A DNA stretch of 64,000 nt from Alphaproteobacteria bacterium (GTDB taxonomy: Bacteria; Pseudomonadota; Alphaproteobacteria; Rs-D84). This document shows, in pieces, positions 29,160 through 44,758 of this stretch. The stretch's first letter is position 1; each line of letters opens with the position of its first letter. Location: the NCBI GenBank assembly GCA_017503725.1, contig JAFVSL010000003.1:72272-136271 (forward strand), in the 5' to 3' direction. A program made the position numbers and the translations under genes. The notes beneath the pieces were generated by a model, which worked only from the letters and a program-made list of their open reading frames with translations, made no database searches and was not told the DNA's origin.

Positions 29160-29408
29160 ATGACCCACGAAGATGTATGGCGGGCAATAGAACGCTTTGC
29201 AACCGAACACGGTATGTCTTGTTCTGGATTGGCAAAGTGCAGTGGTTTGGACCCAACGACCTTTAATAAAAGCAAGCGTTGGTCCAAAGAAGGACAGCCC
29301 AGATGGCCGTCGACAAACAGTATTTCCAAAATTTTGTCGTCGACCGGGGCGCGAATCCAAGACTTTACCAAGTATATTGATTCGCCCCAGGATTCTGGAC
29401 GCGACTAA
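29160..29408 (+). CDS. small helix-turn-helix DNA-binding protein (phage-repressor-like N-domain)
   Basis: WRAIERFATEHGMSCSGLAKCSGLDPTTFNKSKRW HTH pattern; strong RBS GAAGGAGAGAGAAAAATG. Confidence 0.55.
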   Translation: MTHEDVWRAIERFATEHGMSCSGLAKCSGLDPTTFNKSKRWSKEGQPRWPSTNSISKILSSTGARIQDFTKYIDSPQDSGRD

Positions 29409-29490
29409 GCACACTTTTTATGCACGGTTTCGACACCCCAAAAACCACGCGCACTATGCACGTGGTTTTTTGTTGGACAATCGGGGTGCT

Positions 29491-29928
29491 ATGGGGTATT
29501 GTATCTATATGCTATCGGGAATAAGAATCTTTTCAGACGATCAAATCTGGCGGCAAATTTTGTCCGAATTAAACGCCACGGTATTGGATGCGCCCACGGT
29601 AACGGATGTTGATATGGCAAATCTGGATATCTCGGCCCCGATCCATCCAATGGAATTAAAGGCGCGAATACTGTCGGCGACGGATAATTCGCGTTTGTTG
29701 GGCCAGATTTTTGGCACGCCAACAACGTTACCGTATATTCAGGGGAAATTGGTAATCGCACTTTATAAAAGTGGCGGTATGTCATCATCAGATTTGAAAC
29801 GTGCGCTGGGATATGCGGCGGACACATCTACGCATACGGTGGATACCGCGATTTATCAGTTGCGCCGAAAATTCGGTCGTGATTTTATTGTTACAAATAA
29901 TGGGGTATATAAACTTGGCCGGATATAA
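29491..29928 (+). CDS. hypothetical protein with OmpR/PhoB-type winged-helix C-terminal domain
   Basis: C-terminal THTVDTAIYQLRRKFGRDFIVTNNGVYKLG resembles a trans_reg_C winged helix; start uncertain. Confidence 0.45.
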   Translation: MGYCIYMLSGIRIFSDDQIWRQILSELNATVLDAPTVTDVDMANLDISAPIHPMELKARILSATDNSRLLGQIFGTPTTLPYIQGKLVIALYKSGGMSSSDLKRALGYAADTSTHTVDTAIYQLRRKFGRDFIVTNNGVYKLGRI

Positions 29929-30619: not shown

Positions 30620-30648
30620 TTGACATTTATTTAAAAATATGATATACT
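30620..30648 (+). promoter_or_regulatory. near-consensus sigma70 promoter (TTGACA-17-TATACT)
   Basis: Exact -35 hexamer, 17 nt spacer, TATACT -10; followed within 30 to 90 nt by two intrinsic terminators. Confidence 0.55.
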
Positions 30649-30674: not shown

Positions 30675-30741
30675 CCCACAACAACTGTTGGGGATTTTTT
30701 TTGTCTGTTTTTTAGCCGCACATTTTTGTGCGGTTTTTTTT
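30675..30741 (+). terminator. tandem intrinsic terminators (CCCACAAC-loop-GTTGGGG-T8, then GCCGCACA-loop-GTGCGG-T8)
   Basis: Two GC hairpins each followed by T8 on the plus strand, lying between promoter and RBS of the hydrolase gene. Confidence 0.6.
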
Positions 30742-30775: not shown

Positions 30776-31186
30776 ATGAATCTAAGACTGATAAAGAATC
30801 CAGACGAAACGAAAAAGTTATCATATCAAATTGCGCGTGTTGTTTATGCGGAAACATCCGCATCATCACTGACCGCGGTCGAGGCACTGGTATCAATGAT
30901 AAACAATGCATCACGTGCCAGCGGCAGAAGTTTCGCACAAATAATATCTGATACCGATATGTTTGAATCATTAAATGAAACATCCGTTCGTCACGAAATG
31001 TTATCGGTTCCCCCACTTTCACGCGGATTTCAAATGTGCTTGCGGGTTGTTGGTCGAATGCTGATGGGTGGGTTGCCGGATATGTGTCGTGGTGCAACAC
31101 GCTTTCATCACGGTGATGTAAATCCAGATTGGGCACGTTCACGTGGGTATATATTGGATATTGATGAATTACTGTTTTATTTATAA
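30776..31186 (+). CDS. SleB-like cell-wall hydrolase (Hydrolase_2 family), probable endolysin
   Basis: IARVVYAE...ALVSMINN...FHHGDVNPDWARSRGYI matches the SleB/Hydrolase_2 consensus; followed by holin-like gene. Confidence 0.6.
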   Translation: MNLRLIKNPDETKKLSYQIARVVYAETSASSLTAVEALVSMINNASRASGRSFAQIISDTDMFESLNETSVRHEMLSVPPLSRGFQMCLRVVGRMLMGGLPDMCRGATRFHHGDVNPDWARSRGYILDIDELLFYL

Positions 31187-31199
31187 GTGGAAATAAAAA

Positions 31200-31397
31200 A
31201 TGAACAAGTTTTACAAGGGCGGATTCCTAAGCGGCTATCGAACATATATTATGTCATCGGTTGGAATCTTGTCGGCGATTGCGGCCTATGCGGTCGGGGA
31301 CAGTGATATTTTCATAACACTGCAAAGTATTTTTACATTGGGTGGAATTTTCTTTTTACGCAAATCGAATGAACCAAAGGATAAATCAAATGGATAA
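31200..31397 (+). CDS. holin-like small membrane protein (2 TM)
   Basis: 65 aa, two hydrophobic helices, charged C-terminus, immediately after the hydrolase. Confidence 0.5.
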   Translation: MNKFYKGGFLSGYRTYIMSSVGILSAIAAYAVGDSDIFITLQSIFTLGGIFFLRKSNEPKDKSNG

Positions 31398-32046
31398 AGT
31401 TCCAGAAAAATTTTTAAACGAAGACGGTACATTAAATGCAGATGCATTGATGAAATCTTATTCAGAACTTGAACGCAAAATCGGAACAATGATAACGGTG
31501 CCGACCGATGGGTGTGATGAAAGTGTTCGTGCGCGCTTTAATCGCGCGATTGGTGTGCCGGAAACATCTGATGAATATCCAACAAATGAAATATTTGATG
31601 ATGAAAATTTGAAAAATAAATTTCACGAAATTGGATTAACATCAACCCAGGTTGAAAAAATTTATGATATTGCAAATGAATTTCTTGCACCTGTGATATC
31701 AGATTTATATAACACGCAAAATGAAAAAGATGCACTTGCAGAATTAAAAAACTTTTTCGGTGGAACGGAAAAAATGAATGATGCATTGCGTGCAATAGAT
31801 GCGTTTGGTAAAAAGTTTTTACCCGCCGATGCATTTGATGAACTGTGCTCCTCGCCCCAGGGAATCCAAGGGATTTATCGTATGATGCAATCAATGGAAC
31901 CAAATGTTGAAACCGAAAAAAATGAAATAAAAAATTTAACGGATTCAGATTTACGACGTATGATGCGTGATCCAAAATATTGGCGTGATGGCGATGCAGA
32001 ATACATACGCAAAATAGAAAATGGTTTTAAAAAATTATATTCATAA
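31393..32046 (+). CDS. putative phage scaffolding protein (T7 gp9 position)
   Basis: Acidic helical 218 aa protein immediately upstream of the capsid module; assignment by position and composition only. Confidence 0.4.
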
Positions 32047-32155: not shown

Positions 32156-32635
32156 ATGGTCTTTGGCCTGTTCAAAAAATCTGCAAAGAAAGCAGTTGTA
32201 AAACCAGCCGCAAAACCGGTTGCAAAAAAAGAACCTGCAAAGAAAGCGCCAGCAAAGAAAGTTGCTGCAAAAAAGCCAGCTGCAAAACCAGTTGCAAAGA
32301 AAGCACCTGCGAAAAAAGTAGTTGCAAAACCAGTTGCAAAGAAAGCACCTGCAAAAAAAGTAGTTGCAAAACCAGTTGCGAAAAAAGCACCTGCAAAAAA
32401 AGTAGTTGCAAAACCAGTTGCGAAAAAAGCACCAGCGAAAAAAGTAGCGGTTAAAAAACCAGTTGCGAAAAAAGCACCAGCGAAAAAAGTAGCGGTTAAA
32501 AAACCGGTTGCAAAAAAAGCACCTGCGAAAAAAGTAGTTGCAAAACCAGCAGCGAAAAAAGTTGCAGTTAAAAAAGTTGCTGCAAAACCAGTTGCAAAGA
32601 AAGCGTGTGCAAAAAAATGTGCAAAAAAGAAATAA
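32156..32635 (+). CDS. histone H1-like / AlgP-like lysine-alanine-rich repeat protein
   Basis: About 20 tandem [14 protein letters not shown] repeats encoded by 45 nt DNA repeats; RBS GAGAAGGAGAGAAAT. Confidence 0.65.
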
Positions 32636-32853: not shown

Positions 32854-33681
32854 ATGTCCGTTTCAATTGATCAGGTCTTCGTAAAGCAATTCGAGGCCGA
32901 TGTTCATTTGGCCTATCAACAGATGGGCACAAAACTGCGTTCAACCGTTCGCAGCAAATCAGGTGTTGTTGGCGCATCTACCACATTCCAAAAGGTTGGT
33001 CGTGGCACCGCCAGCACAAAATCACGTCACGGTATTGTACCGGTAATGAATTTGAACCACGAACCTGTGGAATGTATGTTAACTGATTACTATGCGGGTG
33101 ATTGGGTTGATGCATTGGATGAATTAAAGGTAAATATTGATGAACGCCGTGTTGTTGCGTCTGCTGGTGCGTATGCCCTGGGGCGCAAGACAGACGAATT
33201 GATTATCGATGCAATGAACACATCAACATTGTCTGTTGGTGATTATACAACCGGCTTGACCAAAGATTTGATTTTATCAGCGGTTGAAATTTTAAACACA
33301 AACGATGTCCCAGATGATGGTCGTCGCTTTGCGGTTATTGGCGTACACCAGTGGAATGAACTGTTGTCGATGGATGAATTTGTATCGGCCGATTATGTTG
33401 GTGATGCAAATCCATTGGTAAATGGTTTTGAGGCAAAAAAATGGTTGGGTATTACATGGGTTCTGCATAACGCATTGCCGGTATCCCAAACGAACCGAGA
33501 TTGCTTTATCTATCACGCGTCCAGCGTTGGGCACGCCTGTGGCCAGGAAGTAAAAACAGACATTTCTTGGCACGGTGAACGTGCGGCGCATTTCATCAGC
33601 AACAGTATGTCCCAGGGTGCCGTTTTAATCGACAATGACGGTATCGTTCGTGTCAAATGTTCTGATGCGCCCGCTGCCTAG
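32854..33681 (+). CDS. phage major capsid protein, T7 gp10-like (short form)
   Basis: TKLRSTVRSKSGVVGASTTFQKVGRGTA parallels T7 gp10 TSRHMVRSISSGKSAQFPVLGRTQAAY; 275 aa. Confidence 0.7.
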   Translation: MSVSIDQVFVKQFEADVHLAYQQMGTKLRSTVRSKSGVVGASTTFQKVGRGTASTKSRHGIVPVMNLNHEPVECMLTDYYAGDWVDALDELKVNIDERRVVASAGAYALGRKTDELIIDAMNTSTLSVGDYTTGLTKDLILSAVEILNTNDVPDDGRRFAVIGVHQWNELLSMDEFVSADYVGDANPLVNGFEAKKWLGITWVLHNALPVSQTNRDCFIYHASSVGHACGQEVKTDISWHGERAAHFISNSMSQGAVLIDNDGIVRVKCSDAPAA

Positions 33682-33719: not shown

Positions 33720-33953
33720 ATGGCATTTCAAAATAAAAATCTGTCGGTGATTGCGTATGCAAATGGCTTTACATTGTGGCATTATGCATCTGCAACAGAA
33801 ACTATTGCGACGATTTCTGCGACCGGCTTTTTCAATGATGTTAAAACATTGATGAATATTGGTGATGTTGTAATTATCAACGCGTCTGATAACACCGCAA
33901 TCAAGAAAATAAACATCACGGCCAGCAACGTCACAACCGGTGCATTGGCATAA
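33720..33953 (+). CDS. hypothetical small protein in capsid-tail module
   Basis: 77 aa ORF with RBS AAGGATAAAT; function unknown. Confidence 0.4.
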   Translation: MAFQNKNLSVIAYANGFTLWHYASATETIATISATGFFNDVKTLMNIGDVVIINASDNTAIKKINITASNVTTGALA

Positions 33954-34026: not shown

Positions 34027-34545
34027 ATGCTTACAAAAATAGATTTATGTTCAATGGCGCTATTAAAACTGGGGGAACAACCAATTCAGTCTTTCAGTGA
34101 CGATACCGCCACCGCACAGTTGGCACGAACCTTATTTGATCCCATAACAGATGCATTGATTGCGTCGCATCCGTGGCGTTTTGCAACCCGTCAATTAACA
34201 TTGACCAAAAATTCAGATGGTGATTTCCTGATTCCATCAGATGTTTTACGGGTACTGAAATCGGGCGGTGATATTGTTGGTAACAAGATTGTTGCACCAA
34301 CAGATAACCTGACAATAACGGCCTGTACGCGTGTTGGGGTTGATATGTTTCCGGGCTATTTTGTGTCATTGGTGGCGACAAAATTGGCGATGGAATTTTG
34401 TATCCCGCTTTCTGGTGACCAGACCGTGTTCAGAATGCTGGCGGCGCTTTATGAATCAGAATTACAGTCTGCAAAATTCATCGACAGCACAACCGCACCC
34501 GGTGCAAAAATAGACAATTTTTCGTTAATAAATGCACGGTTTTAA
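34027..34545 (+). CDS. tail tubular protein A, T7 gp11-like
   Basis: LLKLGEQPIQSFSDDTATAQLARTLFD...SHPWRF parallels T7 gp11 ILASIGEPPVSTLEGDA...RGWTF. Confidence 0.65.
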   Translation: MLTKIDLCSMALLKLGEQPIQSFSDDTATAQLARTLFDPITDALIASHPWRFATRQLTLTKNSDGDFLIPSDVLRVLKSGGDIVGNKIVAPTDNLTITACTRVGVDMFPGYFVSLVATKLAMEFCIPLSGDQTVFRMLAALYESELQSAKFIDSTTAPGAKIDNFSLINARF

Positions 34546-36272
34546 TGGGGGGCAAAATGGCAAATTTTATTAAAACACAGAATTCTTTTGCCCACGGTGT
34601 GGTGTCATCTGAGTTTTTTACGCGTGATGATATTAACGGATTGTCGTGCCTTGAAAATATGGATGTTTTGCCGGGGGGCGGTCTGACGCGTCGTCGCGGA
34701 TTAGCACATATTGCGAATTTACCGGGTGTTGCACGCCTGGTGCCATTTTCTGTATCGGAAACAGAAAACTATGTCTTGGCAATAACATCGGTGCATATAA
34801 TTATTTATTCTGGTACGCAGATGATGGGCGACTTGTTTGCGCCCTGGGGGGCGGACGATTTGTCGCGCCTGCAATACGCCCAGCGTTTTGACACAATGAT
34901 ATTTGTGCACCCAGATTATCGTCCGCAAATTTTGAAAAAAACCGAAACAGGCTTTGAATTGGGTGACTTTATATTTGCGCGCAATGATGCCGATATGTCG
35001 ATGAATATTCCGTTTATGCGGTTCGAGGATACGTCTGATATAAAAATTTCAGTCAGCACCAGTGACCGAGGCAACAACTATGCTAAATTCACGACCAGTT
35101 CAGATTTCTGGACCCCTGAATATGTGCGAACACGCTTTATGCTGTTGGACCGTCAGTGGATAATTGATGAATACATCAGTCCGACCGAGGTTATCGCATA
35201 TGTCAACGGTACATACACCGCGCCCGGCGCGCCGGTAACCGATTGGTTTGAATCCGCGTTCAGCACCCCGCGTGGCTGGCCGTGCAGTATAACATTTCAC
35301 CAAGATCGATTGGTTTTTGGTGGTTCGCGTTCCTATCCGGCGGGCGTATGGATGTCCCGTGTTGGTCAACATAAAAACTTTAACGTTGGCACCGGTCTGG
35401 ATGACGAAGCAATTTTTATAACCCTGCTGTCCCAGCAGCGACAACAAATTTGTACCGTGGTCAGTGGCGATAATCTTCAAATTCTGACCACTGATGGCGA
35501 ATGGGCGATTTCCAGCAAACCATTAACCCCATCGGTCGTTGATATAAAACAGCACACGTCCGTTGGATCTTGTGCATCAAGATATTTACCACCCCAGAAG
35601 ATAGAAGACGCCACCATATTCGTGTCCAAGACAATGCGTGATATTCGCGAATTGTCTTTGGATGATTTGGGTGAAAATTATAACGCAACTGATTTATGCG
35701 CATTTGCCAAGCATTTGATGACATCGCCGGTGGATATGGCGTACAACGATGCAACCCGGCAATTATTCGTGGTCCAATCAGACGGTAATATGGCTGTCTT
35801 GAACCAGAATGGGGCATTGGGGATATCGGCGTGGGCCGAATACAAAACATATGGCAAATTTATATCTGTAACGGTTGTAGACGGGAAAACATATGTCGTA
35901 TCGCTGCGTGATGATGCGTATAACATTGAATGTTTTTCAGATTCTGTGATGCGGGATGCAGATAAATATGATTTTGCATACCAGGCGGCGTCTTTGCCAT
36001 TTCGTGTGTCTCATCATAATGTGTCGCGTTTGCGCATTCGCCGGGTGTCACTGCGCCTGCTGAATACTAAATCAGTATTTATAAATGGCGCGCGTGCCAC
36101 ATTGCCAAATGAAATTTATTCAGAAAATCATCCGGGTTATTCGGGTGACGTGTCTGTAAATTTGCTGGGTGGATGCCTATCGTGTTTGTCGCCATATTGG
36201 ACCATACACGGAAACGAGCCCCAGCCAATAACGGTTTTATCTGTTTGTGTGTCCGGCGGATACAGTGTTTAA
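34545..36272 (+). CDS. tail tubular protein B, T7 gp12-like (shortened)
   Basis: N-terminus FIKTQNSFAHGVVSSEFFTRDDINGLSCLENMDVLPGGGLTRRRG parallels T7 gp12 IKNLKGGISQQPDILRYPDQ...ETEGLQKRP. Confidence 0.65.
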   Translation: MGGKMANFIKTQNSFAHGVVSSEFFTRDDINGLSCLENMDVLPGGGLTRRRGLAHIANLPGVARLVPFSVSETENYVLAITSVHIIIYSGTQMMGDLFAPWGADDLSRLQYAQRFDTMIFVHPDYRPQILKKTETGFELGDFIFARNDADMSMNIPFMRFEDTSDIKISVSTSDRGNNYAKFTTSSDFWTPEYVRTRFMLLDRQWIIDEYISPTEVIAYVNGTYTAPGAPVTDWFESAFSTPRGWPCSITFHQDRLVFGGSRSYPAGVWMSRVGQHKNFNVGTGLDDEAIFITLLSQQRQQICTVVSGDNLQILTTDGEWAISSKPLTPSVVDIKQHTSVGSCASRYLPPQKIEDATIFVSKTMRDIRELSLDDLGENYNATDLCAFAKHLMTSPVDMAYNDATRQLFVVQSDGNMAVLNQNGALGISAWAEYKTYGKFISVTVVDGKTYVVSLRDDAYNIECFSDSVMRDADKYDFAYQAASLPFRVSHHNVSRLRIRRVSLRLLNTKSVFINGARATLPNEIYSENHPGYSGDVSVNLLGGCLSCLSPYWTIHGNEPQPITVLSVCVSGGYSV

Positions 36273-36297: not shown

Positions 36298-36645
36298 ATG
36301 GGACAACTTGTATCAGATGTTAGTGAAATCTTGGATTACAAAGATGAAAAGAAACAGGCAAAATCTGCCCGTCAGGAAATCTTGAAACAGATGGCCGCAG
36401 ACGATGCCGAAAAAACAAACCTGGTCAAAAAGGTGTTGGCGACCCAGCGTGCAAAATATGGCGCATCGGGCGTGTCGTCGCGCGGACTCAGCCAGGGGGC
36501 GGTCCTTGCGCGGTTGAAATCAGAAACCGAACAACCATACACTGAAAAACGCAACGCGAATTTGAAAAAATTAAAATCAACACGTGCCAAGAAACCTAAT
36601 TTATTAAAAACAATATTGTCGCGCTTTGATGACTTAGTCGGCTAG
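36298..36645 (+). CDS. hypothetical basic virion/packaging-associated protein
   Basis: 116 aa K/R-rich ORF between tail tube B and fiber genes. Confidence 0.4.
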   Translation: MGQLVSDVSEILDYKDEKKQAKSARQEILKQMAADDAEKTNLVKKVLATQRAKYGASGVSSRGLSQGAVLARLKSETEQPYTEKRNANLKKLKSTRAKKPNLLKTILSRFDDLVG

Positions 36646-36661
36646 GAATAGGGGGATAATT

Positions 36662-37210
36662 ATGCATAAAATCTCTTACATAGCAGATGGTGTCACGACT
36701 GAATTTGAATTTGCATTTCCATTTTTTCAGGCGGCAGATATCCGCGTCGCCAAGAACGAGGTCATTTTAACCACTGATGAATATTCAGTTGTTGAAAATG
36801 TATCTTTTGATGGTGGACGTGTTGTGTTTAATGTTGCGCCCACCGCGGACACACGTATTGATATCTATCGCGTTGTCGCATTGTCGCGCGTCATAGATTA
36901 TCAGCCAACCGCAAAAATAGACCCAGAACATCTAAATTCGGACTTTAATTTTTTAATCGAGGCCCTAAAAGACCTTCACGCACCCGATGTTGATATCGAG
37001 GCCTGGCGTAACACGCACACAAACGTGGTGAATTTCTTGGAATATACGAACAGTCTAATCCAAGATAAATTAACCGGTGGCGGTGTGCTGGGGATTTATC
37101 GCAATTTAATAGCGGTGCTGGATAACGCATTACCAAATCTGATTAACGACTATGGATACATTACGGATTCGGCCGACGACGCCACGTGCGACGATTACGG
37201 ATTATTGTAA
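36662..37210 (+). CDS. tail fiber N-terminal (tail-attachment) domain only, T7 gp17-like
   Basis: YIADGVTTEFEFAFPFFQAADIRV parallels T7 gp17 YQLDGSNRDFNIPFEYLARKFVVV; only 182 aa, no distal receptor-binding domain. Confidence 0.55.
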   Translation: MHKISYIADGVTTEFEFAFPFFQAADIRVAKNEVILTTDEYSVVENVSFDGGRVVFNVAPTADTRIDIYRVVALSRVIDYQPTAKIDPEHLNSDFNFLIEALKDLHAPDVDIEAWRNTHTNVVNFLEYTNSLIQDKLTGGGVLGIYRNLIAVLDNALPNLINDYGYITDSADDATCDDYGLL

Positions 37211-37214
37211 TTTT

Positions 37215-37793
37215 ATGGATACGTGGAACCATACCCTGGGGCAGACAACACCCACACACCACCGTAAAATAATGGAATTTCTGGTGGATGTTCTGGGGGA
37301 CGATATGCACCGGGGACTGCTGATGGCGTTTCGACATTCGGGCAAATCGACCGTTGTCGGGATTTTTGCAGCGTGCACATTGTACCTGTTCCCGTGTACG
37401 CGCATACTGATTTTGTCGGCGCACACGACATTGGCATCGCGAATGGTCGGGCATATCAGACATATCTTGGAAAATCATCCCTGGTGTGCGGATTTATTGC
37501 CCACATCGCGTCGTGATTGGTCGTCGGGACACATTACTATCAACCGACCAATAGGCATACGCGAACCATCTGTAATATGCCAGGGCATCCACGGCAACAT
37601 CACCGGAATGCGCGCAGATTTAATAATCTGCGATGACGTAGAGGTGCCAAACACATCAAACACCCCGCAAAAGCGTGAAAATCTGCGTGAAAGATTACGT
37701 GAACTGGATTTTATCTTGTCGCCCACGGGCACGATGATTTACATCGGTACACCACACACAATGGATACGATTTATCGTACCAGCGATGACTAG
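37215..37793 (+). CDS. terminase large subunit, N-terminal ATPase part (split gene)
   Basis: Walker A FRHSGKST, Walker B LIICDDVE, coupling motif IYIGTPH; ends at a stop without a nuclease domain. Confidence 0.65.
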   Translation: MDTWNHTLGQTTPTHHRKIMEFLVDVLGDDMHRGLLMAFRHSGKSTVVGIFAACTLYLFPCTRILILSAHTTLASRMVGHIRHILENHPWCADLLPTSRRDWSSGHITINRPIGIREPSVICQGIHGNITGMRADLIICDDVEVPNTSNTPQKRENLRERLRELDFILSPTGTMIYIGTPHTMDTIYRTSDD

Positions 37794-38446
37794 GCGTTAT
37801 CTTCGGCTTTTACCGAACTGATAAACGTGCGCAACCGCCCCAACAGTTCGTTTCCTGCATCCCCAAACATCGGCAGGTATGTTTCATATTCTGGCATATC
37901 GGCCTGGATTTCTGCGCGTGCACGTTCATCCAGTGGTGCGTTAATAATTTGATTCGCCGTATCCCACAATTGATACGCGCGATATGTTTTTGTAACGACC
38001 GCCCATTGATTTTGCATATCCGGATGCTTGTCCAGTGCATCGTGAATTGCGTTTGCCCATTCTTCGCCAAATCTGCGTACCACATTAAGGCCACGTATAC
38101 GATTCAGGCCGTCTGGATCGGGGGTAAAAGAATTTAACACAGATTGTAATTCAGAAATATCTTTCTGGGACAAAATGGTGTCGGTCACACTGGATTGTGT
38201 CATCAATCCACCATATGGAATCAATTCTGGTTCAATGGAATCCATTGGTGTTTTGCCACTGCGCAGATTTTCAATATGCCGGATAAGCATTTTACCGGTT
38301 GGCATTTCGCGCAACTCTTTGATTACGTCATCGGTGGCCTCGTCTATAAAGACTGGGTTAATCGCAGACCATCCGCCAACGATAACGTGTTCCTGGCGAT
38401 AAAGGTTTAACAATCTTTGTGCCGTGGCGGCGATACGTGCTTTCAT
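37790..38446 (-). CDS. hypothetical protein
   Basis: 218 aa ORF in the block interrupting the terminase. Confidence 0.45.
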   Translation of the reverse strand: MKARIAATAQRLLNLYRQEHVIVGGWSAINPVFIDEATDDVIKELREMPTGKMLIRHIENLRSGKTPMDSIEPELIPYGGLMTQSSVTDTILSQKDISELQSVLNSFTPDPDGLNRIRGLNVVRRFGEEWANAIHDALDKHPDMQNQWAVVTKTYRAYQLWDTANQIINAPLDERARAEIQADMPEYETYLPMFGDAGNELLGRLRTFISSVKAEDNA

Positions 38447-38480
38447 AATGTGCCTCTCTCTCCGGTATTATGTTGATGAA

Positions 38481-39488
38481 TTATTCCATCACAATCATAA
38501 CAACTTTGTGCATTGTTTGCGCGTTAATTTTTTCTTCTGGGCTGGATATTTGACCGTATATTTTCCCTTTGGAATCTTGACGTACACTAACAATTTGCGC
38601 GTTGACGGTTGTTTCTGAATCCAATGCATCAAAGTCCGTATCAATGCATACCGCCAAATCGCCCGCCACAATTGGTGCATCTACATCGGCAAATACGTAT
38701 GATTTTTCAGGGATAAATCCGCCCAAGCGCTTTGAATTTGGCATAACCGCGTAAATACCACTGCGGCCCTCTAATGACATTGGGGCAACAATCATCGTTT
38801 TGTCAGATTTTTTAAACGCAATTGATTTACCAGACGGCATACCGAACACCGGGACCAGTTTTTTGCGTGCACTGTCATACAATTTTGCGCCATACAAGCC
38901 GCCACTCATATCAATGCCAGATAATGGGTTGCCCGGTTCCAGTACGGATTTAACGCGTTCCTTGACCTTGTTAATCTGTTTGTTTAATTCGCCGCTTTTA
39001 TACAGGGTTGCGATTTTATCAAACATACTTTCGACCGTCATCGCGAACGATTGTGCCAATGGTTCAATTTCATTTTCATAGATTTCGCGTTGTCCAACCT
39101 CGATTTTATGATACACAGACAATGTCATACCGGCATCTTTGGCGGCACGTGCGATAGTTTTTCCAGATTGCTGGCGAATTTTGCGCAGACCACTGCCGAA
39201 AATTTTCAGGCCACCATCTTCGTTATCATTCAGACGGCGTTTGATTTCGGTTTGCCATTGTTCTGCAACCTCGTCAGATTCTTTGATGAAAATGTCGGAC
39301 AGTTTGCACCCCAAGATATTACAGATATTCAGCAACTGTTTCTGGTTCAAGCGGCGTACACCCTTTTCAATTTTTGAAACCGCGGACAGGGACAAACCCG
39401 CGCGTCGCGCCAGTTCCGTCATCTTCATCCCATTTTTCAGGCGGATGTTTCTGATATTATTTGGAAAAATAATTTCTTCTTGGGCCAT
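38481..39488 (-). CDS. XRE-family transcriptional regulator with two HTH domains and CI/LexA-like C-terminal domain
   Basis: Two Cro/C1-type HTH segments (MTELARRAGLSLSAVSKIEKG; IARAAKDAGMTLSVYHKIEVG) plus C-terminal beta-rich domain. Confidence 0.6.
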   Translation of the reverse strand: MAQEEIIFPNNIRNIRLKNGMKMTELARRAGLSLSAVSKIEKGVRRLNQKQLLNICNILGCKLSDIFIKESDEVAEQWQTEIKRRLNDNEDGGLKIFGSGLRKIRQQSGKTIARAAKDAGMTLSVYHKIEVGQREIYENEIEPLAQSFAMTVESMFDKIATLYKSGELNKQINKVKERVKSVLEPGNPLSGIDMSGGLYGAKLYDSARKKLVPVFGMPSGKSIAFKKSDKTMIVAPMSLEGRSGIYAVMPNSKRLGGFIPEKSYVFADVDAPIVAGDLAVCIDTDFDALDSETTVNAQIVSVRQDSKGKIYGQISSPEEKINAQTMHKVVMIVME

Positions 39489-39563
39489 TGTGCAACTCCT
39501 TAAAAACTATAATCTTGACAAAATAATAGTCAATTTTTAAGGCTTGCGCAAGTAAATAATCAC

Positions 39564-41120
39564 TTACAGTGGCATATCATCCGGGATTGCATCGATATCA
39601 ATTGGCGTTGGTGAAAATTCAGATCCATCCAATGGTATGCTGGCGGTTGGTTGTGATGTGACGTTTTCACCACGTGTGTCAAATTCATCCGGCAGATTGT
39701 CGAACAAACTGTAATCGCCAAAGAATGCGGTGCGTACGGTTTCCGGACGTCCGTGACGGTTTTTTCCGATGATAATATCGGCCTTGCCACGGGATTGTTC
39801 GTAACGTTTTTGCCACGATTCCACCATTGCGGAATTTGTTGTGTTTGAAATTCTTTCTGATGGATTACGGTTCGCCAGATAGTATTCTTCGCGGTACGTA
39901 AACATAACAATGTCGGCGTCTTGTTCAATAGATCCAGATTCACGCAAGTCCGCCAATTGTGGACGTTTGTCATCGCGCTGTTCAACGCTACGTGACAACT
40001 GTGACAGGGCAATTACCGGCACATCCAATTCCTTGGCCAGCATTTTTAGCCCTCGTGTAATTTCGGAAATTTCTTGGACACGGTTGTCGCTGCGCTTGCC
40101 ACCGGGGGACGTCATCAATTGCAGATAGTCCACCACAATCAACGCAATTCCACCATATTTCCGTGCCAGGCGTCTTGCACGTGTGCGCATCATCGGTACC
40201 GACATACCCGGCGTATCATCAATGCACAGTGGAATCTTGCTGATTGCGTCGGCGTATTGTGTCATTTTAAGCATATCTTCATCCGTCAGGTTTCCTTCAC
40301 GCATTGCGGATGCGGGCACCTTGGACTGGGATGATAAAACACGTGCCGCTAATTGGGAATGCGACATTTCAAGACTGAAAAATACGACGGCGCCCTTGTA
40401 ATTTTTATTGGCCGTGCCATAGTGTATTGCATTTGCCGCATTAAACGCGATATTCATCGCCAACGTGGTTTTACCCATCGCCGGACGACCCGCTACGATA
40501 ATTAAATCCGAATGGTGCAGACCACTGATTGATTTATCCAGCGCCGTCAGTCCCGTTGTCAGACCCGATAATTGCCCGTCGGCCTTGTACGCGGTTTCGG
40601 CTTCCCTTAATGCGGCCTGTAATGCGGTTGCGATTGAAACAACGTCACGTTCGGACGAACCCGTGGTTGCCATATCGAATAATTTCTGTTCGGCAACCTC
40701 TATTTGTCGATTAACTGGATTGTCCAGGTCTTCGACAAATGCGCCATCCATAATATCCTGGGCCAGGTTGATTAACTGTCGTCTTTGTGCATGTTCGTAT
40801 ACGATGCGACCATATTGTTCAACGTTAACAACGGTTGCCCCCGCACCCGATAATTGGGTCAGGTAATCCACACCACCCACCGATTCCAAGACCCCCTGTT
40901 GGTCCAGATAGTTTTTAGCGGTAATAATATCGAACGGGATACCGGCGGCAAATTGACGTTCCGCCAGTTTATAAATTTCCTGGTGTGCGGGATGCGAAAA
41001 GTGTTCCGCATTCAAGAATTCTGACACACGTTCCAACGCGCGATTATTCATCAACACCGCGGCCAGTACGGCCTGTTCTGCTTCCAGATTGGTTGGCAAA
41101 GTCTTAGGGGTAAAATCCAT
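39564..41120 (-). CDS. dnaB: replicative DNA helicase DnaB
   Basis: DnaB N-domain NLEAEQAVLAAVLMN, Walker A AGRPAMGKTT, RecA-like core; start set at MDFTPKTL; acidic C-terminal tail of about 60 aa. Confidence 0.8.
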   Translation of the reverse strand: MDFTPKTLPTNLEAEQAVLAAVLMNNRALERVSEFLNAEHFSHPAHQEIYKLAERQFAAGIPFDIITAKNYLDQQGVLESVGGVDYLTQLSGAGATVVNVEQYGRIVYEHAQRRQLINLAQDIMDGAFVEDLDNPVNRQIEVAEQKLFDMATTGSSERDVVSIATALQAALREAETAYKADGQLSGLTTGLTALDKSISGLHHSDLIIVAGRPAMGKTTLAMNIAFNAANAIHYGTANKNYKGAVVFFSLEMSHSQLAARVLSSQSKVPASAMREGNLTDEDMLKMTQYADAISKIPLCIDDTPGMSVPMMRTRARRLARKYGGIALIVVDYLQLMTSPGGKRSDNRVQEISEITRGLKMLAKELDVPVIALSQLSRSVEQRDDKRPQLADLRESGSIEQDADIVMFTYREEYYLANRNPSERISNTTNSAMVESWQKRYEQSRGKADIIIGKNRHGRPETVRTAFFGDYSLFDNLPDEFDTRGENVTSQPTASIPLDGSEFSPTPIDIDAIPDDMPL

Positions 41121-41145
41121 GTCAAAATCCTTTTCCTTAACGCCA

Positions 41146-41985
41146 ATGGTATATGAAAAAAATGCTTTTTCAATGCCTTTTTTATCGGGATATAAAATAT
41201 TGAAAATTCCGATAGTTGACGCCAATGGTACGCCCGCGTGGCCGGAACTTTTCCCGATTGAAAAGGTTGCCCAGATGCGGCAAATCGTCGGCCCCCGGCA
41301 TTTTTCAGCACAAATGATGCTGGAATTTGTGCCACCTGAACGTATTCGTCTGGACCCGGGGCAAATACATTTCTATGAATATATGCTGGATATTCATTCG
41401 GCACGTCTGGGGCCGCATTTGATAACGGGTGCGTCTGTGTATTGGGATCCGTCCACCGGCCGCCATAAATCAGACCACAGTGTTTGTGTTCTGATATATC
41501 GTGATGATAAAAATCATAATGTTTTTATACACGATGTTATGTATATGACGGTTTCTGATACCGAAACCCACCCCTTGAATGCCCAGTGTGAACGGGTGAT
41601 TGATTTTATGCACCGATACGGTATGCGCCGAATAACAATCGAGACAAATGGACTGGGCAATGCATTGCCGGAAATAATGCGCGATGTGGCGGTGCGTCGG
41701 GGTCAAAACATATACGTAAATAAAATCACTAATAACCGGAACAAGTCCGACAGAATCTTGGATGCGATTGAACCCCTGCTGACCTCGGGGCACCTGTATG
41801 CCAATATGCGTGTGCAACATACGCCACTTTTGTCGGAAATGTTGGGTTGGTCACCCGTTGGCGGGGTGGGGCACGATGACGGCTTGGACGCGATTGCGGG
41901 TGCGATTGCGCAAACGCCGATTGTCCTGCGTCCGTCCGGGGGGATGTCCCGTCCAGTTTATGCAAATACAAATTTCACAATATAA
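41146..41985 (+). CDS. terminase large subunit, C-terminal nuclease part (split gene)
   Basis: RNaseH-like nuclease motifs VYWDPSTGRHKSDHSVCVLI and GHDDGLDAIAGAI; start uncertain (41119-41173). Confidence 0.65.
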   Translation: MVYEKNAFSMPFLSGYKILKIPIVDANGTPAWPELFPIEKVAQMRQIVGPRHFSAQMMLEFVPPERIRLDPGQIHFYEYMLDIHSARLGPHLITGASVYWDPSTGRHKSDHSVCVLIYRDDKNHNVFIHDVMYMTVSDTETHPLNAQCERVIDFMHRYGMRRITIETNGLGNALPEIMRDVAVRRGQNIYVNKITNNRNKSDRILDAIEPLLTSGHLYANMRVQHTPLLSEMLGWSPVGGVGHDDGLDAIAGAIAQTPIVLRPSGGMSRPVYANTNFTI

Positions 41986-42011: not shown

Positions 42012-43241
42012 ATGCAATCTAATTTATTGCAAATGTACAAACGTGCGCTGGATATGCGCGATCCGTGGTTGCGTCGTTGGGCGGATGCACGCCGGTATAC
42101 AATGCCGGAAACCGATGACGACACGGCAACGCTGTTTGATGCAACCGCAATGGATGCGGTTGATAATCTGGCGGCATCACTTTATACATTATTGACCCCA
42201 CCGGAATCATTGTGGCTGAACCTGGTCCCGGAAAGTGATTTGTCACCCGATGCAGGCACCGCGACGGATGTGTTGCGTGCAAACTTAAATGATTCTAATT
42301 TTTATACGACCGTGCACCAATGTTATTTGGATTTGGTCACGTTGGGAACAGCGTGTTTGTTTATGGCGGAAAATCCGATTGGTGCGTCATCTGCATTTTC
42401 GTTCACCGCGATTCCAATGTCAGATATTGCAATTTTACCAAACGCGGTATTTCACACCACATCAATGTCCGCGCGTGATGCGATGGAAAAATATCCGACA
42501 TGGACGGTGCCGGCAAACCTGCGTGATACAATAAAACAAGACCCCGACACCCCAATTAAACTGGTACAGAGTTTGGTTGGAACTGAATTTACAGCGTGGT
42601 TGGATGCCGGTGGCGACATTGAAAACAACATTGTTGCAACGGGAACATTTGAAACAAATCCGTATTTGATTTTCCGTTGGTCGGTGACGTCCGGCGAAAT
42701 TTATGGGCGTGGCCCGGTCTTGCGTGCGTTGCCAGATATTAAAACCGCGAACAAGGTTGTGGAATTAGTCTTGAAAAACGCGACAATATCCGTATCTGGT
42801 ATCTGGATGGCGGACGATGACGGCGTGATAAATTTGAATAACATCAGCCTGACGCCGGGTGCGATTATACCAAAGGCGGTTGGTTCGTCGGGCCTGACAC
42901 CATTGACCAGTGGTGCAAACTTTGATGTGTCCCAGATTATTTTAAAAGATCTGCGGGAACGCATCCGTCACGCATTGTTGGCGGACCGGTTGGGCCTGTT
43001 AAGCGAAAAAGAAATGACCGCAACCGAGATTATGGCCCGTAATTCCGATATGATGCGAATCTTGGGTGCGACCTATGGTCGATTACTGCACGAATTTATA
43101 AGGCCATTGTGCGAACGCGGTTTGCAGATTTTATCACGCCGTGGTGTGATTGAACCAATAACCCTGCACGGGGATGCAGAATTAAAATACATTGCACCAA
43201 TTGCACAAATGGTTGCGCTGGAATCAATTGCGGGGGTGTAA
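42012..43241 (+). CDS. phage portal (head-to-tail connector) protein, T7 gp8-like (shortened)
   Basis: MYKRALDMRDPWLRRWADARRYTMPE...AVDNLAASLYTLLTPPESLWLNL parallels T7 gp8 YERLKNDRAPYETRAQNCAQYTIP...GLNNLASKLMLALFPMQTWMRL. Confidence 0.65.
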   Translation: MQSNLLQMYKRALDMRDPWLRRWADARRYTMPETDDDTATLFDATAMDAVDNLAASLYTLLTPPESLWLNLVPESDLSPDAGTATDVLRANLNDSNFYTTVHQCYLDLVTLGTACLFMAENPIGASSAFSFTAIPMSDIAILPNAVFHTTSMSARDAMEKYPTWTVPANLRDTIKQDPDTPIKLVQSLVGTEFTAWLDAGGDIENNIVATGTFETNPYLIFRWSVTSGEIYGRGPVLRALPDIKTANKVVELVLKNATISVSGIWMADDDGVINLNNISLTPGAIIPKAVGSSGLTPLTSGANFDVSQIILKDLRERIRHALLADRLGLLSEKEMTATEIMARNSDMMRILGATYGRLLHEFIRPLCERGLQILSRRGVIEPITLHGDAELKYIAPIAQMVALESIAGV

Positions 43242-43244
43242 TAA

Positions 43245-43439
43245 ATGTCGGAAAATATCGCACAAGATTTTGCGCGCACATTTTGCACCCCATCGGGTGC
43301 GCGTGTGATTGAGCATTTACGCAAAATAACTATTGAACGGGTACTGGGGGCGAACGCGACGGACGCAGAATTGCGCGGGGTTGAGGCCCAACGTGCCCTT
43401 GTTCACCAAATTGAAAATATGATAGAACGGGGGAAATAA
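43245..43439 (+). CDS. hypothetical small protein
   Basis: 64 aa ORF tightly packed after portal gene. Confidence 0.4.
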   Translation: MSENIAQDFARTFCTPSGARVIEHLRKITIERVLGANATDAELRGVEAQRALVHQIENMIERGK

Positions 43440-43441
43440 AA

Positions 43442-43699
43442 ATGACGACGCAACCCAGTGCCATTGGCATCCTAGATTTTTTACGCGACAGTTGGTTTTT
43501 AATCGCCTTTATTGCGGGGTGTGTCTACTGGGTTGCGCGCCAGGATTCGTCCGTTGCGGAACTGGAACGTGTTGATGCCCGTATAACATCGCTTGAAAAT
43601 CGCACAACGGTCTTGGAAACGGGTATCGGCCAAATTCAAATAAAAATAGACGATATCAAAGAAGACCTGAACCTGATAAAAGGCGCAGTTATTAAATAA
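43442..43699 (+). CDS. hypothetical TM + coiled-coil protein (holin/spanin-like)
   Basis: One TM helix followed by heptad coiled coil; 85 aa. Confidence 0.4.
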   Translation: MTTQPSAIGILDFLRDSWFLIAFIAGCVYWVARQDSSVAELERVDARITSLENRTTVLETGIGQIQIKIDDIKEDLNLIKGAVIK

Positions 43700-43715: not shown

Positions 43716-43966
43716 TTGCGTAAGTGGAAACATTTGGTTATAATGTGATTGTTATGGTGACTTTGCCATAATGGGGTGTAGAAACCCGACTTACGCGTCG
43801 AAACATAAATAAGCGGAAATATGCCGGACGGTTGTGTTTTGATGAAATAAAACTCCTGAACTTTATTGGTCAGGAGGGTTGCGAATATATTGAATAAGCA
43901 CACAATTCGTAAGATTGTTTCTAACCTCCTGACCACTTGAATTTATTCAGTGGTTTTTGTTTTTTC
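43716..43966 (+). promoter_or_regulatory. conserved promoter + structured 5' leader with terminator (copy 2 of 3)
   Basis: -35 TTGCGT (43716-21), 17 nt spacer, -10 TATAAT (43739-44); ATGGGGTGTAGAAACCC box; hairpins CTCCTGA/GTCAGGAG and GGTCAGGAGGGTT/AACCTCCTGACC; terminator ACCACT-loop-AGTGGT + T-run. Confidence 0.6.
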
Positions 43967-43994
43967 GCGAAAAACAATGAAAGGAGTTGAACAA

Positions 43995-44432
43995 ATGAAA
44001 AAACTTTTAACCTTAACCGCGCTTGGTGCGATTCTTGCCGCACCGGCAATCGCCGCAACCCAATGCGTTAAGCAGGTTGATGCAAATACCCCCTGTACGA
44101 ATTTAACCAATGGAAATTCGGATTGGATAATTCAGTGTGGCGGGCAAAGATACAGAGGGGTCATTTTCCTTGGTGAATATCAACCTGAGGGCAGCACCGC
44201 AGATAGTCTGGAAACGGGTGTTGCAGATGACCCACATAGGGCGGATGATGGCTGTTGGTGTAAAATGACATATCCGGTGGAATCAAAATGGGTTTCGGTT
44301 GGGTATACGCCGGGTTCTGGTGGATTTTTTACGTGTTCCCAACGTTGTTCTTGGGGTGACACCGATTTGGGGCTTTTTTACAGCAAAGATCTTGTAAATG
44401 ATTACTATTTACCAAATTTAATCTCTGACTAG
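43995..44432 (+). CDS. secreted cysteine-rich protein, family A (CWCKMTYPVESKW)
   Basis: Signal peptide MKKLLTLTALGAILAAPAIA; paralog of 2979-3449. Confidence 0.65.
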   Translation: MKKLLTLTALGAILAAPAIAATQCVKQVDANTPCTNLTNGNSDWIIQCGGQRYRGVIFLGEYQPEGSTADSLETGVADDPHRADDGCWCKMTYPVESKWVSVGYTPGSGGFFTCSQRCSWGDTDLGLFYSKDLVNDYYLPNLISD

Positions 44433-44445
44433 GTAGGGGGGGAAA

Positions 44446-44715
44446 ATGAAAAAAATAGCATTTATAATTGCGTTTATGCCGATGTGTGCATATTCCGTCG
44501 CCCCATCCACCAGTTGCCCCACAGGATACGTAACCGTTACGCGTTCTAATTTTATTATGGCGACTGTGTGTCCAACGGGATATGTGGCGGCACGAAAGTT
44601 AAATTCTTGCCTGAACAATGCAACGTATGATTGTTGGCTGTATACGCCGGCCGGCGTCAGTTACACCGACGGTCTCGGCACGTATGAATTTACCGATGTG
44701 TGCCCAATGTCATAA
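44446..44715 (+). CDS. secreted cysteine-rich small protein, family B
   Basis: Paralog of 2710-2979 (both 89 aa; shared CPTGY...TYEFTDVC). Confidence 0.65.
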   Translation: MKKIAFIIAFMPMCAYSVAPSTSCPTGYVTVTRSNFIMATVCPTGYVAARKLNSCLNNATYDCWLYTPAGVSYTDGLGTYEFTDVCPMS

Positions 44716-44758
44716 AAAATCCCGCCATCGGCGGGATTTTTTTCTTTTCCTTTCTCTA

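Follow-up and report, generated by a model that had tools for sequence, protein, structure and literature searches.

The region between about 30.6 and 44.7 kb of the stretch of DNA examined here is probably a chromosomally fixed, vertically inherited and podovirus-derived gene cluster of Candidatus Enterousia, one that resembles a gene transfer agent (GTA) and encodes a functional terminase composed of two polypeptides. The stretch, which we call the window, comprises 64,000 nucleotides (nt) of the forward strand from an Alphaproteobacteria bacterium of the Rs-D84 lineage (assembly GCA_017503725.1, contig JAFVSL010000003.1, positions 72,272-136,271). A preliminary description of this sequence had reported that the large terminase subunit is encoded by two open reading frames (ORFs) flanking a 3.3-kb block on the opposite strand, which carries dnaB, an XRE-family regulator with two helix-turn-helix (HTH) domains and a hypothetical gene. 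Our ORF map and family matches confirm this arrangement. Its parts are listed below in window coordinates, with the terminase genes called TerL-N and TerL-C, the hypothetical gene called hyp218, and the ratio of nonsynonymous to synonymous substitution rates given as dN/dS.

37152..37793, plus strand: TerL-N, 213 amino acids (aa), the ATPase core, with Walker A at G64-K65-S66-T67, Walker B at D161-D162, the catalytic E164 and motif III at G199-T200-P201
37790..37793: CTAG overlap of the stop codons of TerL-N (plus strand) and hyp218 (minus strand)
37790..38446, minus strand: hyp218, a conserved 218-aa protein, last gene of the dnaB-XRE-hyp218 string; dN/dS 0.03-0.13
38481..39488, minus strand: XRE-family regulator, 335 aa, with two HTH_3 domains (E=8e-20) and a promoter-like site at 39533-39506; dN/dS 0.02-0.05
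39564..41120, minus strand: dnaB, 518 aa, a replicative helicase of the alphaproteobacterial type; dN/dS 0.02-0.06
41118..41121: CATG overlap of the start codons of dnaB (minus strand) and TerL-C (plus strand), with no intergenic spacer, in 67 of 70 loci
41119..41985, plus strand: TerL-C, 288 aa, predicted to comprise one strand and the helical lid, which form the final ~75-80 residues of the ATPase domain, and then the RNase H-like nuclease

Family searches were made against Pfam, PHROGs and NCBIfam, and for hyp218 and the XRE protein additionally by PDB profile search. TerL-N aligns with positions 272-459 of phrog_38, with positions 1-190 of the 500 in NCBIfam termin_lrg_T7 and with Pfam Terminase_6N; TerL-C (ORF 41089-41985) aligns with positions 468-702 of phrog_38, with Terminase-T7_RNaseH-like and with Terminase_6C. 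Against NF033889, the model for T7-type large terminases, TerL-N passes the 150-bit cutoff with 224.7 bits and TerL-C alone falls under it with 99 bits, and the nuclease of TerL-C exceeds the cutoffs of PF22530 (33.6 bits, cutoff 27) and PF17289 (23.3 bits, cutoff 22.6). Concatenated, the two products are collinear with intact terminases of 480-510 aa, with about three extra residues at the junction, and match T7-like phage terminases as a single BLAST piece that spans this junction. As encoded, no single polypeptide of about 480-590 aa carries both domains; the coding sequence is divided between two ORFs that lie 3.3 kb apart and have their own start and stop codons.

The catalytic residues of both pieces are retained, as had been claimed for the Walker A, Walker B and nuclease Asp motifs. 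Walker A, Walker B, the catalytic Glu and motif III of TerL-N are invariant in 18 aligned homologues and are also invariant or nearly so in comparison with 63 intact terminases, in which the acidic nuclease residues equivalent to D314, E379 and D457/D458/D461 (concatenated numbering) are nearly invariant. The ends of both ORFs stand as first reported, and both starts must be moved upstream. TerL-N most likely begins at 37152 rather than 37215, given that F21, D23, W25 and N26 are invariant in the 18 homologues, and TerL-C most likely begins at 41119 rather than 41146, with an ATG that shares the CATG with the dnaB start and, in 67 of 70 loci, has an uninterrupted reading frame into the rest of the gene. 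From this start TerL-C begins MSKSFSLTPMVYEK. We also observed that the 12-mer ACGCCAATGGTA occurs twice near the 5' end of TerL-C, at 41140-41151 and 41219-41230, 79 nt apart; the first copy spans the internal ATG at 41146, and its reverse complement partly recurs near the 3' end of dnaB (39601-39617).

The short N-terminal piece is the common form among its closest relatives. The protein collection holds 829 TerL-N homologues, of which the best 120 are all about 200 aa long and 73-98% identical, and all 18 aligned homologues end right after PHTxDTIYRT and a short acidic tail. An intein or intron interrupting a continuous terminase was considered and rejected, since only about three extra residues lie at the junction, Rfam finds only transfer RNAs (tRNAs) in the window, the block encodes nothing except dnaB, XRE and hyp218, and in a related clade (clade C, below) the two pieces are encoded by distinct ORFs that overlap.

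The position of the break appears to be inside the ATPase domain. It lies about 10 residues past the GTP(H) motif, after motif III and before the lid, and the end of TerL-N is equivalent to residue ~215 in two PDB chains, the PhiV-1 terminase (8dgc, 586 aa) and the T7 gp19 model (4bij, 476 aa). The Pfam nuclease domain begins only at about residue 98 of TerL-C, and the first catalytic Asp, part of a WDP sequence, lies about 100 residues into this protein. An AlphaFold2 (AF2) model of the concatenated terminase made from the single sequence reached a predicted local distance difference test score (pLDDT) of 34; rebuilt with an alignment of the 63 intact homologues, it reached a pLDDT of 91.6 and a predicted template modelling score of 0.81. 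The junction between residues 213 and 214 falls within a coil (200-229) that follows strand 189-199, whose end is motif III, and precedes strand 230-234, and the 10-residue block containing it has the lowest internal confidence (pLDDT 62). Helices at 251-280 come next, and the nuclease sheet starts at about residue 304. When used as a Foldseek query, the model found the full-length terminases PhiV-1, T4 gp17, Sf6 gp2 and D6E, and aligned with ATPase-only chains of P74-26 TerL over ~280 columns and with nuclease-only chains over ~195-228 columns. According to the model, TerL-C would thus supply the last ~75-80 residues of the ATPase domain, including one strand and the lid, in addition to the nuclease. 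The preliminary description had placed the break exactly at the boundary between ATPase and nuclease, which is contradicted by the AF2 model, the Foldseek alignments and the start of the Pfam nuclease domain. As a result, two proteins would have to rebuild one ATPase domain by fragment complementation.

Comparison of loci was made among the best 80 of more than 590 species-representative genomes with a TerL-N relative, all 80 being labelled Candidatus Enterousia or uncultured Alphaproteobacteria and coming from animal and human guts, and gene order was judged only where a locus was long enough. The same split is present in every informative locus, far more consistently than chance could explain, which answers the earlier proposal that orthologous loci in relatives be compared. 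The shared gene order is lipB, endolysin, scaffold, capsid, p77, tube A, tube B, p115, the fibre in some species, TerL-N, then hyp218, XRE and dnaB on the opposite strand, and then TerL-C, portal, the Bbp19-like gene and p85. In addition, the exact XRE protein occurs on at least 23 metagenome contigs, and the split is present in all six of the loci shown. The possibility of an assembly artefact, for which long-read validation had been suggested, is refuted by the circular metaFlye chromosome of L018 (958,618 bp), which carries the same split.

Both terminase genes have been maintained by purifying selection. Intact ORFs, defined as ORFs covering at least 90%, were found for TerL-N in 80 of 80 loci, for TerL-C in 68 of 70, for the capsid in 68 of 70 and for the portal in 64 of 68. 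By the Nei-Gojobori method over nine species pairs, with dS saturated between species, dN/dS is 0.03-0.09 for TerL-N, 0.01-0.09 for TerL-C, 0.02-0.07 for the portal and 0.06-0.18 for lipB, so that the values for the terminase halves are comparable to those for dnaB and below those for lipB. Even between distant species the capsid and portal are 79-92% identical, compared to 52-68% for lipB and trmA. Intact ORFs, low dN/dS and retained catalytic residues bear out the suggestion that this is a functional two-piece terminase, and the first two of these observations refute its inactivation by rearrangement. Because the layout has been kept by selection in dozens of species, the comparative data support a working design, not a broken gene.

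Inheritance of the cluster appears to be vertical. It adjoins lipB in all 58 loci that reach this flank, and on the right, in the loci that extend far enough, it adjoins rpsD. Pairwise distances among element genes track those among host genes across 47 loci/species (rho 0.40-0.85, Mantel p=0.002), a result that concerns distance matrices and not the congruence of trees.

Both ends of the intervening block are seamless. TerL-N and hyp218 have stop codons that share 4 nt (CTAG, TTAA, TTAG or CTAA) in 51 of 79 loci, with a gap that never exceeds 10 nt, and this overlap leaves no room for a terminator between the two genes. At the other end, the overlap of the start codons means that the promoter and leader of dnaB sit inside the first codons of TerL-C, where a sigma-70-like site (TTGAAA-16-TACCAT, 41173-41146) matches the consensus. 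The first 20 codons of TerL-C have a synonymous diversity of 0.24, compared to a gene mean of 0.72. A promoter for TerL-C inside dnaB is unsupported, in that the 5' end of dnaB has a synonymous diversity of 0.68 against a mean of 0.70; with this end unconstrained, TerL-C and portal have no evident promoter of their own that is conserved. On the other strand, DnaB codons 4-5 are complementary to a Shine-Dalgarno-like sequence (GGAG/GGGG) 8 nt 5' of the TerL-C start codon. The anatomy of the junctions fits late transcripts that run antisense through the block, and simple compaction of the genome is equally compatible with it.

The helicase gene within the block most likely belongs to the cell. 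DnaB passes the equivalog model for alphaproteobacterial replicative helicases (NF006606, 605.1 bits, cutoff 540) and TIGR00665 (505.6 bits, cutoff 385), and fails the phage_DnaB model TIGR03600 (412.9 bits, cutoff 498.65). Its N- and C-terminal domains (PF00772 and PF03796) are both present, the protein is 76-87% conserved across species, and no second dnaB occurs within the 64-kb window. Genomes of Candidatus Enterousia, a member of order Rs-D84, are only 0.75-1.0 Mb in size (PMC12306168). The equivalog scores, a host genome of this size and a dN/dS of ~0.03 together suggest to us that DnaB is most likely the cell's own helicase. The resemblance to a host replicative helicase that had been pointed out in the preliminary description is therefore upheld by scores above the curated chromosomal cutoffs, and its alternative suggestion, that the helicase is part of the phage-derived element, is not supported by the same models. 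As a separate observation, synonymous diversity in dnaB dips to 0.57-0.63 at codons ~340-450, the conserved ATPase core, compared to 0.70 for the whole gene; the reason may be codon bias where the protein is conserved, or a signal embedded there.

The element could well be regulated by the XRE protein. Across 18 species with saturated synonymous sites, its first HTH (residues 1-70) is almost 100% identical, a conservation that tops that of DnaB. The C-terminal 125 residues have no Pfam match even at E<=1 and no PDB profile match beyond the HTH. Neither Pfam nor PDB profile searches detected a CI/LexA-type S24 domain with its Ser-Lys dyad, and the candidate Ser252 varies (S/Q/A/T/V) among orthologues. 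The product of hyp218 had no match in Pfam (E<=1), PHROGs, NCBIfam, PADLOC or the PDB profile search. Repeats between 37.0 and 42.2 kb are limited to short matches at chance level, and sites of the att or recombination type were not found there.

Relatives beyond Enterousia came from a search of 1.84 billion representative proteins. The nearest ones outside the Enterousia clade are ~50% identical over the N piece and are mostly intact (480-510 aa), and some of these intact relatives also lie in compact chromosomal clusters beside host genes (e.g. L153). Two other clades, B and C, have a terminase divided in the same loop and no dnaB between the pieces. In clade C (L146:9549-12928, L147 and L148:5934-18040, including a contig of 1.47 Mb), TerL-N of 210 or 224 aa and TerL-C of 271-326 aa are adjacent on the same strand, with an 8-nt overlap (ATGGGTGA) or a 2-nt gap, a spacing that is the usual signature of translational coupling. 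The pair adjoins ftsY-miaB-dapF. L148 has capsid, tail, scaffold and portal genes and an S24 regulator nearby. We noted separately that in L146 and L147 the two terminase pieces are accompanied by just a 149-aa gene and three small genes, and that neither capsid nor portal is found nearby.

Clade B (L149-L152; L149:10001-17600) has 29-35% guanine-cytosine content and is common in human and animal gut metagenomes. Its TerL-N proteins form ~30 clusters that end at DTIYK(V/T), and the gene order is TerL-N, a noncoding stretch with a tRNA, ftsZ (527-584 aa), portal, TerL-C, a gene for a 220-aa protein and Bbp19, with a mipZ/parA-like gene and obg just downstream. Judged from these gene orders, the two-gene terminase recurs in this family of elements, and two lineages nest essential cell-cycle genes that differ from one another (dnaB and ftsZ). 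A neighbour-joining (NJ) tree recovered each split clade in 60 of 60 bootstraps and placed clades A and B together in 12 of 60. The loop may have been split once, in an ancient event, or repeatedly. In either case, compared to a single insertion into an uninterrupted gene, an initial split followed by a later insertion between two existing genes is the simpler course. The earlier proposal that a functional terminase was created by insertion at the linker accordingly divides into two parts: function is supported, and insertion as the cause is doubtful, clades B and C being split without dnaB. Among the matches listed, GenBank phages have only single-piece T7-like terminases, with less than 30% identity across the break, and in a scan of IMG/VR for free phages with a split terminase the matches listed were saturated by Enterousia loci. 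IMG/VR contains many 4-14-kb 'viral genomes' (L087-L145, L157-L195) that correspond to this cluster of the chromosome and are usually truncated at the capsid gene.

The cluster surrounding the terminase extends from ~30.6 to 44.7 kb, 14.1 kb including the 3.3-kb host block, and comprises a compact set of morphogenesis and lysis genes like those of T7/BPP-1-like podoviruses. Its remaining features are as follows.

30620..30648, plus strand: sigma-70-like promoter match, TTGACA-17-TATACT, 11/12 with a TG extension, the region's best; a consensus match, with its function predicted from this match only
30714-30735, plus strand: hairpin and T-run, within 70 nt of the 30620 promoter match and just 5' of the endolysin-like gene
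30776..31186, plus strand: endolysin-like cell-wall hydrolase, 136 aa (phrog_938, E=4e-8; weak Pfam Hydrolase_2), at the same position in 58 loci
31200..31397, plus strand: putative holin-like membrane protein, 65 aa, assigned by position and hydrophobicity; a homologous 72-aa protein has the same position in clade B
31390..32046, plus strand: T7-type scaffolding (capsid assembly) protein (Pfam Phage_T7_Capsid, E=7e-9)
32156..32635, plus strand: Lys/Ala-rich low-complexity protein, 159 aa, variable between species
32854..33681, plus strand: major capsid protein (Phage_capsid_2, Pfam E=3e-73), 83-92% identical across species, dN/dS 0.02-0.08
33720..33953, plus strand: conserved phage protein, 77 aa (phrog_18004)
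34027..34545, plus strand: tail tubular protein A (phrog_394, E=3e-33; Pfam Tube)
34545..36272, plus strand: tail tubular protein B-like, 575 aa (phrog_376, E=4e-82)
36298..36645, plus strand: conserved protein p115, 115 aa, with no family match and with weak homologues at the same position in clade B
36662..37210, plus strand: short tail fibre with the T7 fibre N-terminal domain (Pfam Phage_T7_tail; phrog_1640), absent in some species
42012..43241, plus strand: portal (head-to-tail connector; Pfam Head-tail_con, E=2e-84), 79-86% identical across species
43245..43439, plus strand: Bbp19-like small phage protein (Pfam PF25181, E=2e-9)
43442..43699, plus strand: membrane/coiled-coil protein p85, 85 aa, with weak XhlA/hemolysin similarity; a similar protein opens the clade B cluster
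44714..44742, plus strand: strong terminator-like hairpin with a 13-bp stem, between the cluster and rpsD, likely the right boundary

The hairpin at 30714-30735 could be an attenuator or an antitermination target, for which the Caulobacter GTA provides a precedent. Protein p85 is a probable lysis accessory protein; for p115, our guesses are a small terminase or an internal virion protein. The short fibre had no match at its usual position in L018, L064-L066, L069, L074, L079, L082 and L085, the last of which has a weak match elsewhere in the locus, and the receptor-binding part seems to be a variable module. Across species the scaffold gene, which overlaps or abuts the Lys/Ala-rich ORF, has a synonymous diversity of 0.46, compared to 0.61-0.74 for other genes.

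Ordinary host genes flank the cluster, with lpxI, a tRNA methyltransferase gene and lipB on the left and rpsD, a PHP phosphatase gene and corA on the right. In family searches of 24.6-48.9 kb, neither an integrase nor any phage replication gene was found. An integrated temperate prophage was rejected on this ground, together with the lack of long flanking repeats in 37.0-42.2 kb and the presence of the same locus in all species examined. Just upstream of lipB, at 29160-29928 on the plus strand, are genes for an 82-aa HTH protein and for a protein of 104-145 aa whose C-terminus is a Trans_reg_C-like winged helix. The clade B cluster is preceded, at the corresponding position, by a 168-aa Trans_reg_C-like gene, and the two winged-helix genes have no BLAST homology. 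Between the cluster and rpsD, at 43950-44715 on the plus strand, are genes for two small Cys-rich proteins (145-160 aa and 89 aa) with apparent signal peptides; this pair is found only in the closest relatives and thus is probably outside the conserved element.

We consider that the cluster is most likely a GTA-like domesticated particle system. Six criteria for GTAs have been published (PMC9662315). Three of these can be judged from sequence, and each is seen here: proteins derived from tailed phages, full endogenisation and vertical co-diversification, with endogenisation being read from the position between lipB and rpsD, the host genes inside the cluster and the lack of an integrase or replication module. 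The other three, namely packaging of mostly random host DNA, a head too small for the GTA's own genes and delivery of the DNA to other cells, are experimental. In the mechanism that we propose, TerL-N, carrying the ATPase core, and TerL-C, carrying the lid and nuclease, would associate non-covalently by fragment complementation across a surface loop, and the reassembled terminase would act as one packaging motor on the portal. The terminase genes would remain separated by the antisense host operon dnaB-XRE-hyp218, to which both are seamlessly joined.

Several observations weigh against the interpretation of the locus as a GTA-like cluster with a functional split terminase. Family searches recognised no small terminase and no T7-type ejection proteins (gp14-16 equivalents) in or near the cluster; these may be absent, too divergent for recognition, or encoded elsewhere. 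The NJ tree unites the three split clades in 0 of 60 bootstraps. The chain given to AF2 was concatenated, so the model indicates that the pieces are compatible with one fold, and their association is what we infer from it. Likewise, the production of particles, the packaging of DNA and the binding of the two pieces to each other are predicted here from genes, from which we also infer DNA transfer, regulation of the cluster by the XRE protein and transcriptional interference between the late genes and the dnaB operon. Lastly, the cluster has decayed in L061 (JAZLBQ010000007.1, 6600-14600), where the genes from capsid to fibre are deleted, TerL-C is truncated and the portal is missing, while TerL-N and the hyp218-XRE-dnaB block are intact. 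Such a loss means that the cluster is not indispensable, and it could be either real decay or an assembly problem in a metagenome-assembled genome.

Four other explanations were considered. It is possible, but doubtful, that the dnaB-XRE-hyp218 string inserted straight into an intact terminase gene at a permissive loop, in which case a single event would have created the two-piece enzyme. The break does lie in a variable, low-confidence loop with nothing missing on either side, both junctions are exact, and a terminase tree without one split group makes independent origins possible. However, clade C has the same break with adjacent and translationally coupled genes, clade B has different genes (tRNA, ftsZ and portal) between the pieces, no repeats or recombinase flank the block, and a split into adjacent genes that is followed by insertion needs only viable intermediates. 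Very improbable, in our judgement, is the proposal that the block is the phage's own replication and lysogeny module, with a phage DnaB and a CI-like repressor, in a rearranged prophage. DnaB passes the chromosomal equivalog model and fails phage_DnaB, and it is 76-87% conserved with a dN/dS of ~0.03 in hosts with genomes of only 0.75-1.0 Mb (PMC12306168). Moreover, there are no integrases or att-like repeats, the locus is fixed between lipB and rpsD where the flanks were reached, and no S24 domain was detected in the XRE protein, even though this protein resembles the HTH domains of phage repressors and control proteins and related clusters have a neighbouring HTH or S24 regulator.

An explanation that we regard as unlikely keeps a working terminase and functional domesticated particles and assigns to the particles a purpose other than gene transfer, such as killing or lysis, release of DNA for biofilm or nutrition, or interference with phages. 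The evidence for selection is silent on which function has been selected, and neither ejection proteins nor a small terminase were found, both of which are in keeping with this explanation. Against it, the strict retention of the portal and of the ATPase and nuclease residues of the terminase points to DNA packaging rather than to empty particles, and the testable features fit the published criteria for GTAs. That the terminase halves are functionless relics of a decaying prophage, or products of misassembly, is scarcely credible: the partial decay in L061 speaks for this, but ORFs are intact in 80/80 and 68/70 loci, dN/dS is below 0.1 despite saturated dS, and the same split occurs in independent short-read and long-read assemblies. 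We also entertain, as a distinctly speculative and rather improbable extension of the GTA interpretation, that the locus represents an unrecognised family of podovirus-derived GTAs, widespread in gut Alphaproteobacteria, in which the packaging motor is naturally split within its ATPase domain and reassembled by fragment complementation, and the late operon is interleaved with dnaB (in Enterousia) or ftsZ (in a sister clade), such that transcription of the particle genes and that of the replication or division genes would be mutually exclusive. In Enterousia, late transcription that reads on from TerL-N across the antisense block into TerL-C and portal would then silence the helicase and the repressor, and this would serve as a commitment switch.

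The closest known kind of system is that of the alphaproteobacterial GTAs (RcGTA-type Rhodogtaviriformidae, BaGTA and CcGTA), from which this cluster differs in its podovirus derivation, its split packaging ATPase and its nested essential host genes. Like the Enterousia cluster, these GTAs occur in the same class of hosts as chromosome-fixed clusters of head, tail and packaging genes derived from tailed phages, without genes for integration or replication, and they are inherited vertically under purifying selection. GTA clusters also exist in strongly reduced alphaproteobacterial genomes (PMC9254644). RcGTA-type elements differ in that they originate from HK97-like siphoviruses and have a single-chain terminase, whereas the Enterousia cluster has T7/BPP-1-like podovirus proteins, a two-piece terminase and an essential host operon inside it, and is here a system read from its genes. 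The FpGTA of Faecalibacterium was described in 2026 as the first podovirus-like GTA (PMC12946183). Its host phylum is Bacillota and its packaging was shown experimentally; the available text describes no split terminase or nested essential genes. Among phage enzymes, the large terminases of T7-like phages (Autographiviridae) and BPP-1-like phages share the fold and motifs, as evidenced by the matches of the N and C pieces to termin_lrg_T7 and to PDB 8dgc and 4bij, but in the deposited genomes listed they are one continuous piece across the break, with less than 30% identity.

Genes divided into pieces whose products work as subunits are known from phages, including Aeh1 nrdA, split by mobE, and the T4 topoisomerase genes gp39/gp60, and such breaks are tolerated at surface loops. 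These splits were caused by insertions of homing endonucleases in the genomes of lytic phages. In contrast, the Enterousia terminase has no mobile endonuclease; a host operon intervenes here, or nothing in other lineages, and the enzyme is a packaging motor. The break in herpesvirus UL15 lies at a different point from that in the Enterousia terminase. The layout of UL15 is nonetheless a striking parallel in form: throughout the herpesvirus family, this terminase ATPase gene is in two parts ~3.5 kb apart, with UL16 and UL17 on the opposite strand between them (PMC3079670). Exons of UL15 are spliced into one protein (PMC3079670), whereas the Enterousia parts have their own start and stop codons and exhibit no sign of RNA or protein splicing. 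Phrase searches gave no description of a split or bipartite terminase, and in the literature searched on Enterousia or Rs-D84 with phages or GTAs we found no account of this element.

Large terminases have been studied as single-chain motors with two domains, and models for the generation of force rely on a covalent arrangement of ATPase, lid and nuclease. If a terminase split after motif III has been retained by selection in hundreds of species, nature has in effect tested which connections the motor needs. A probable new GTA-like family of the podovirus type is indicated by the locus, in gut Alphaproteobacteria that are abundant, uncultured and endowed with less than 1 Mb of DNA, and the retention of ~11 kb of phage genes in genomes this small implies a strong benefit. 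Because IMG/VR lists these loci as viral genomes, virome surveys may count a host-encoded element as phage. Finally, the nesting of dnaB, or of ftsZ in a related clade, and the zero-length palindromic junctions suggest that particle production and the cell cycle may be coupled in their regulation.

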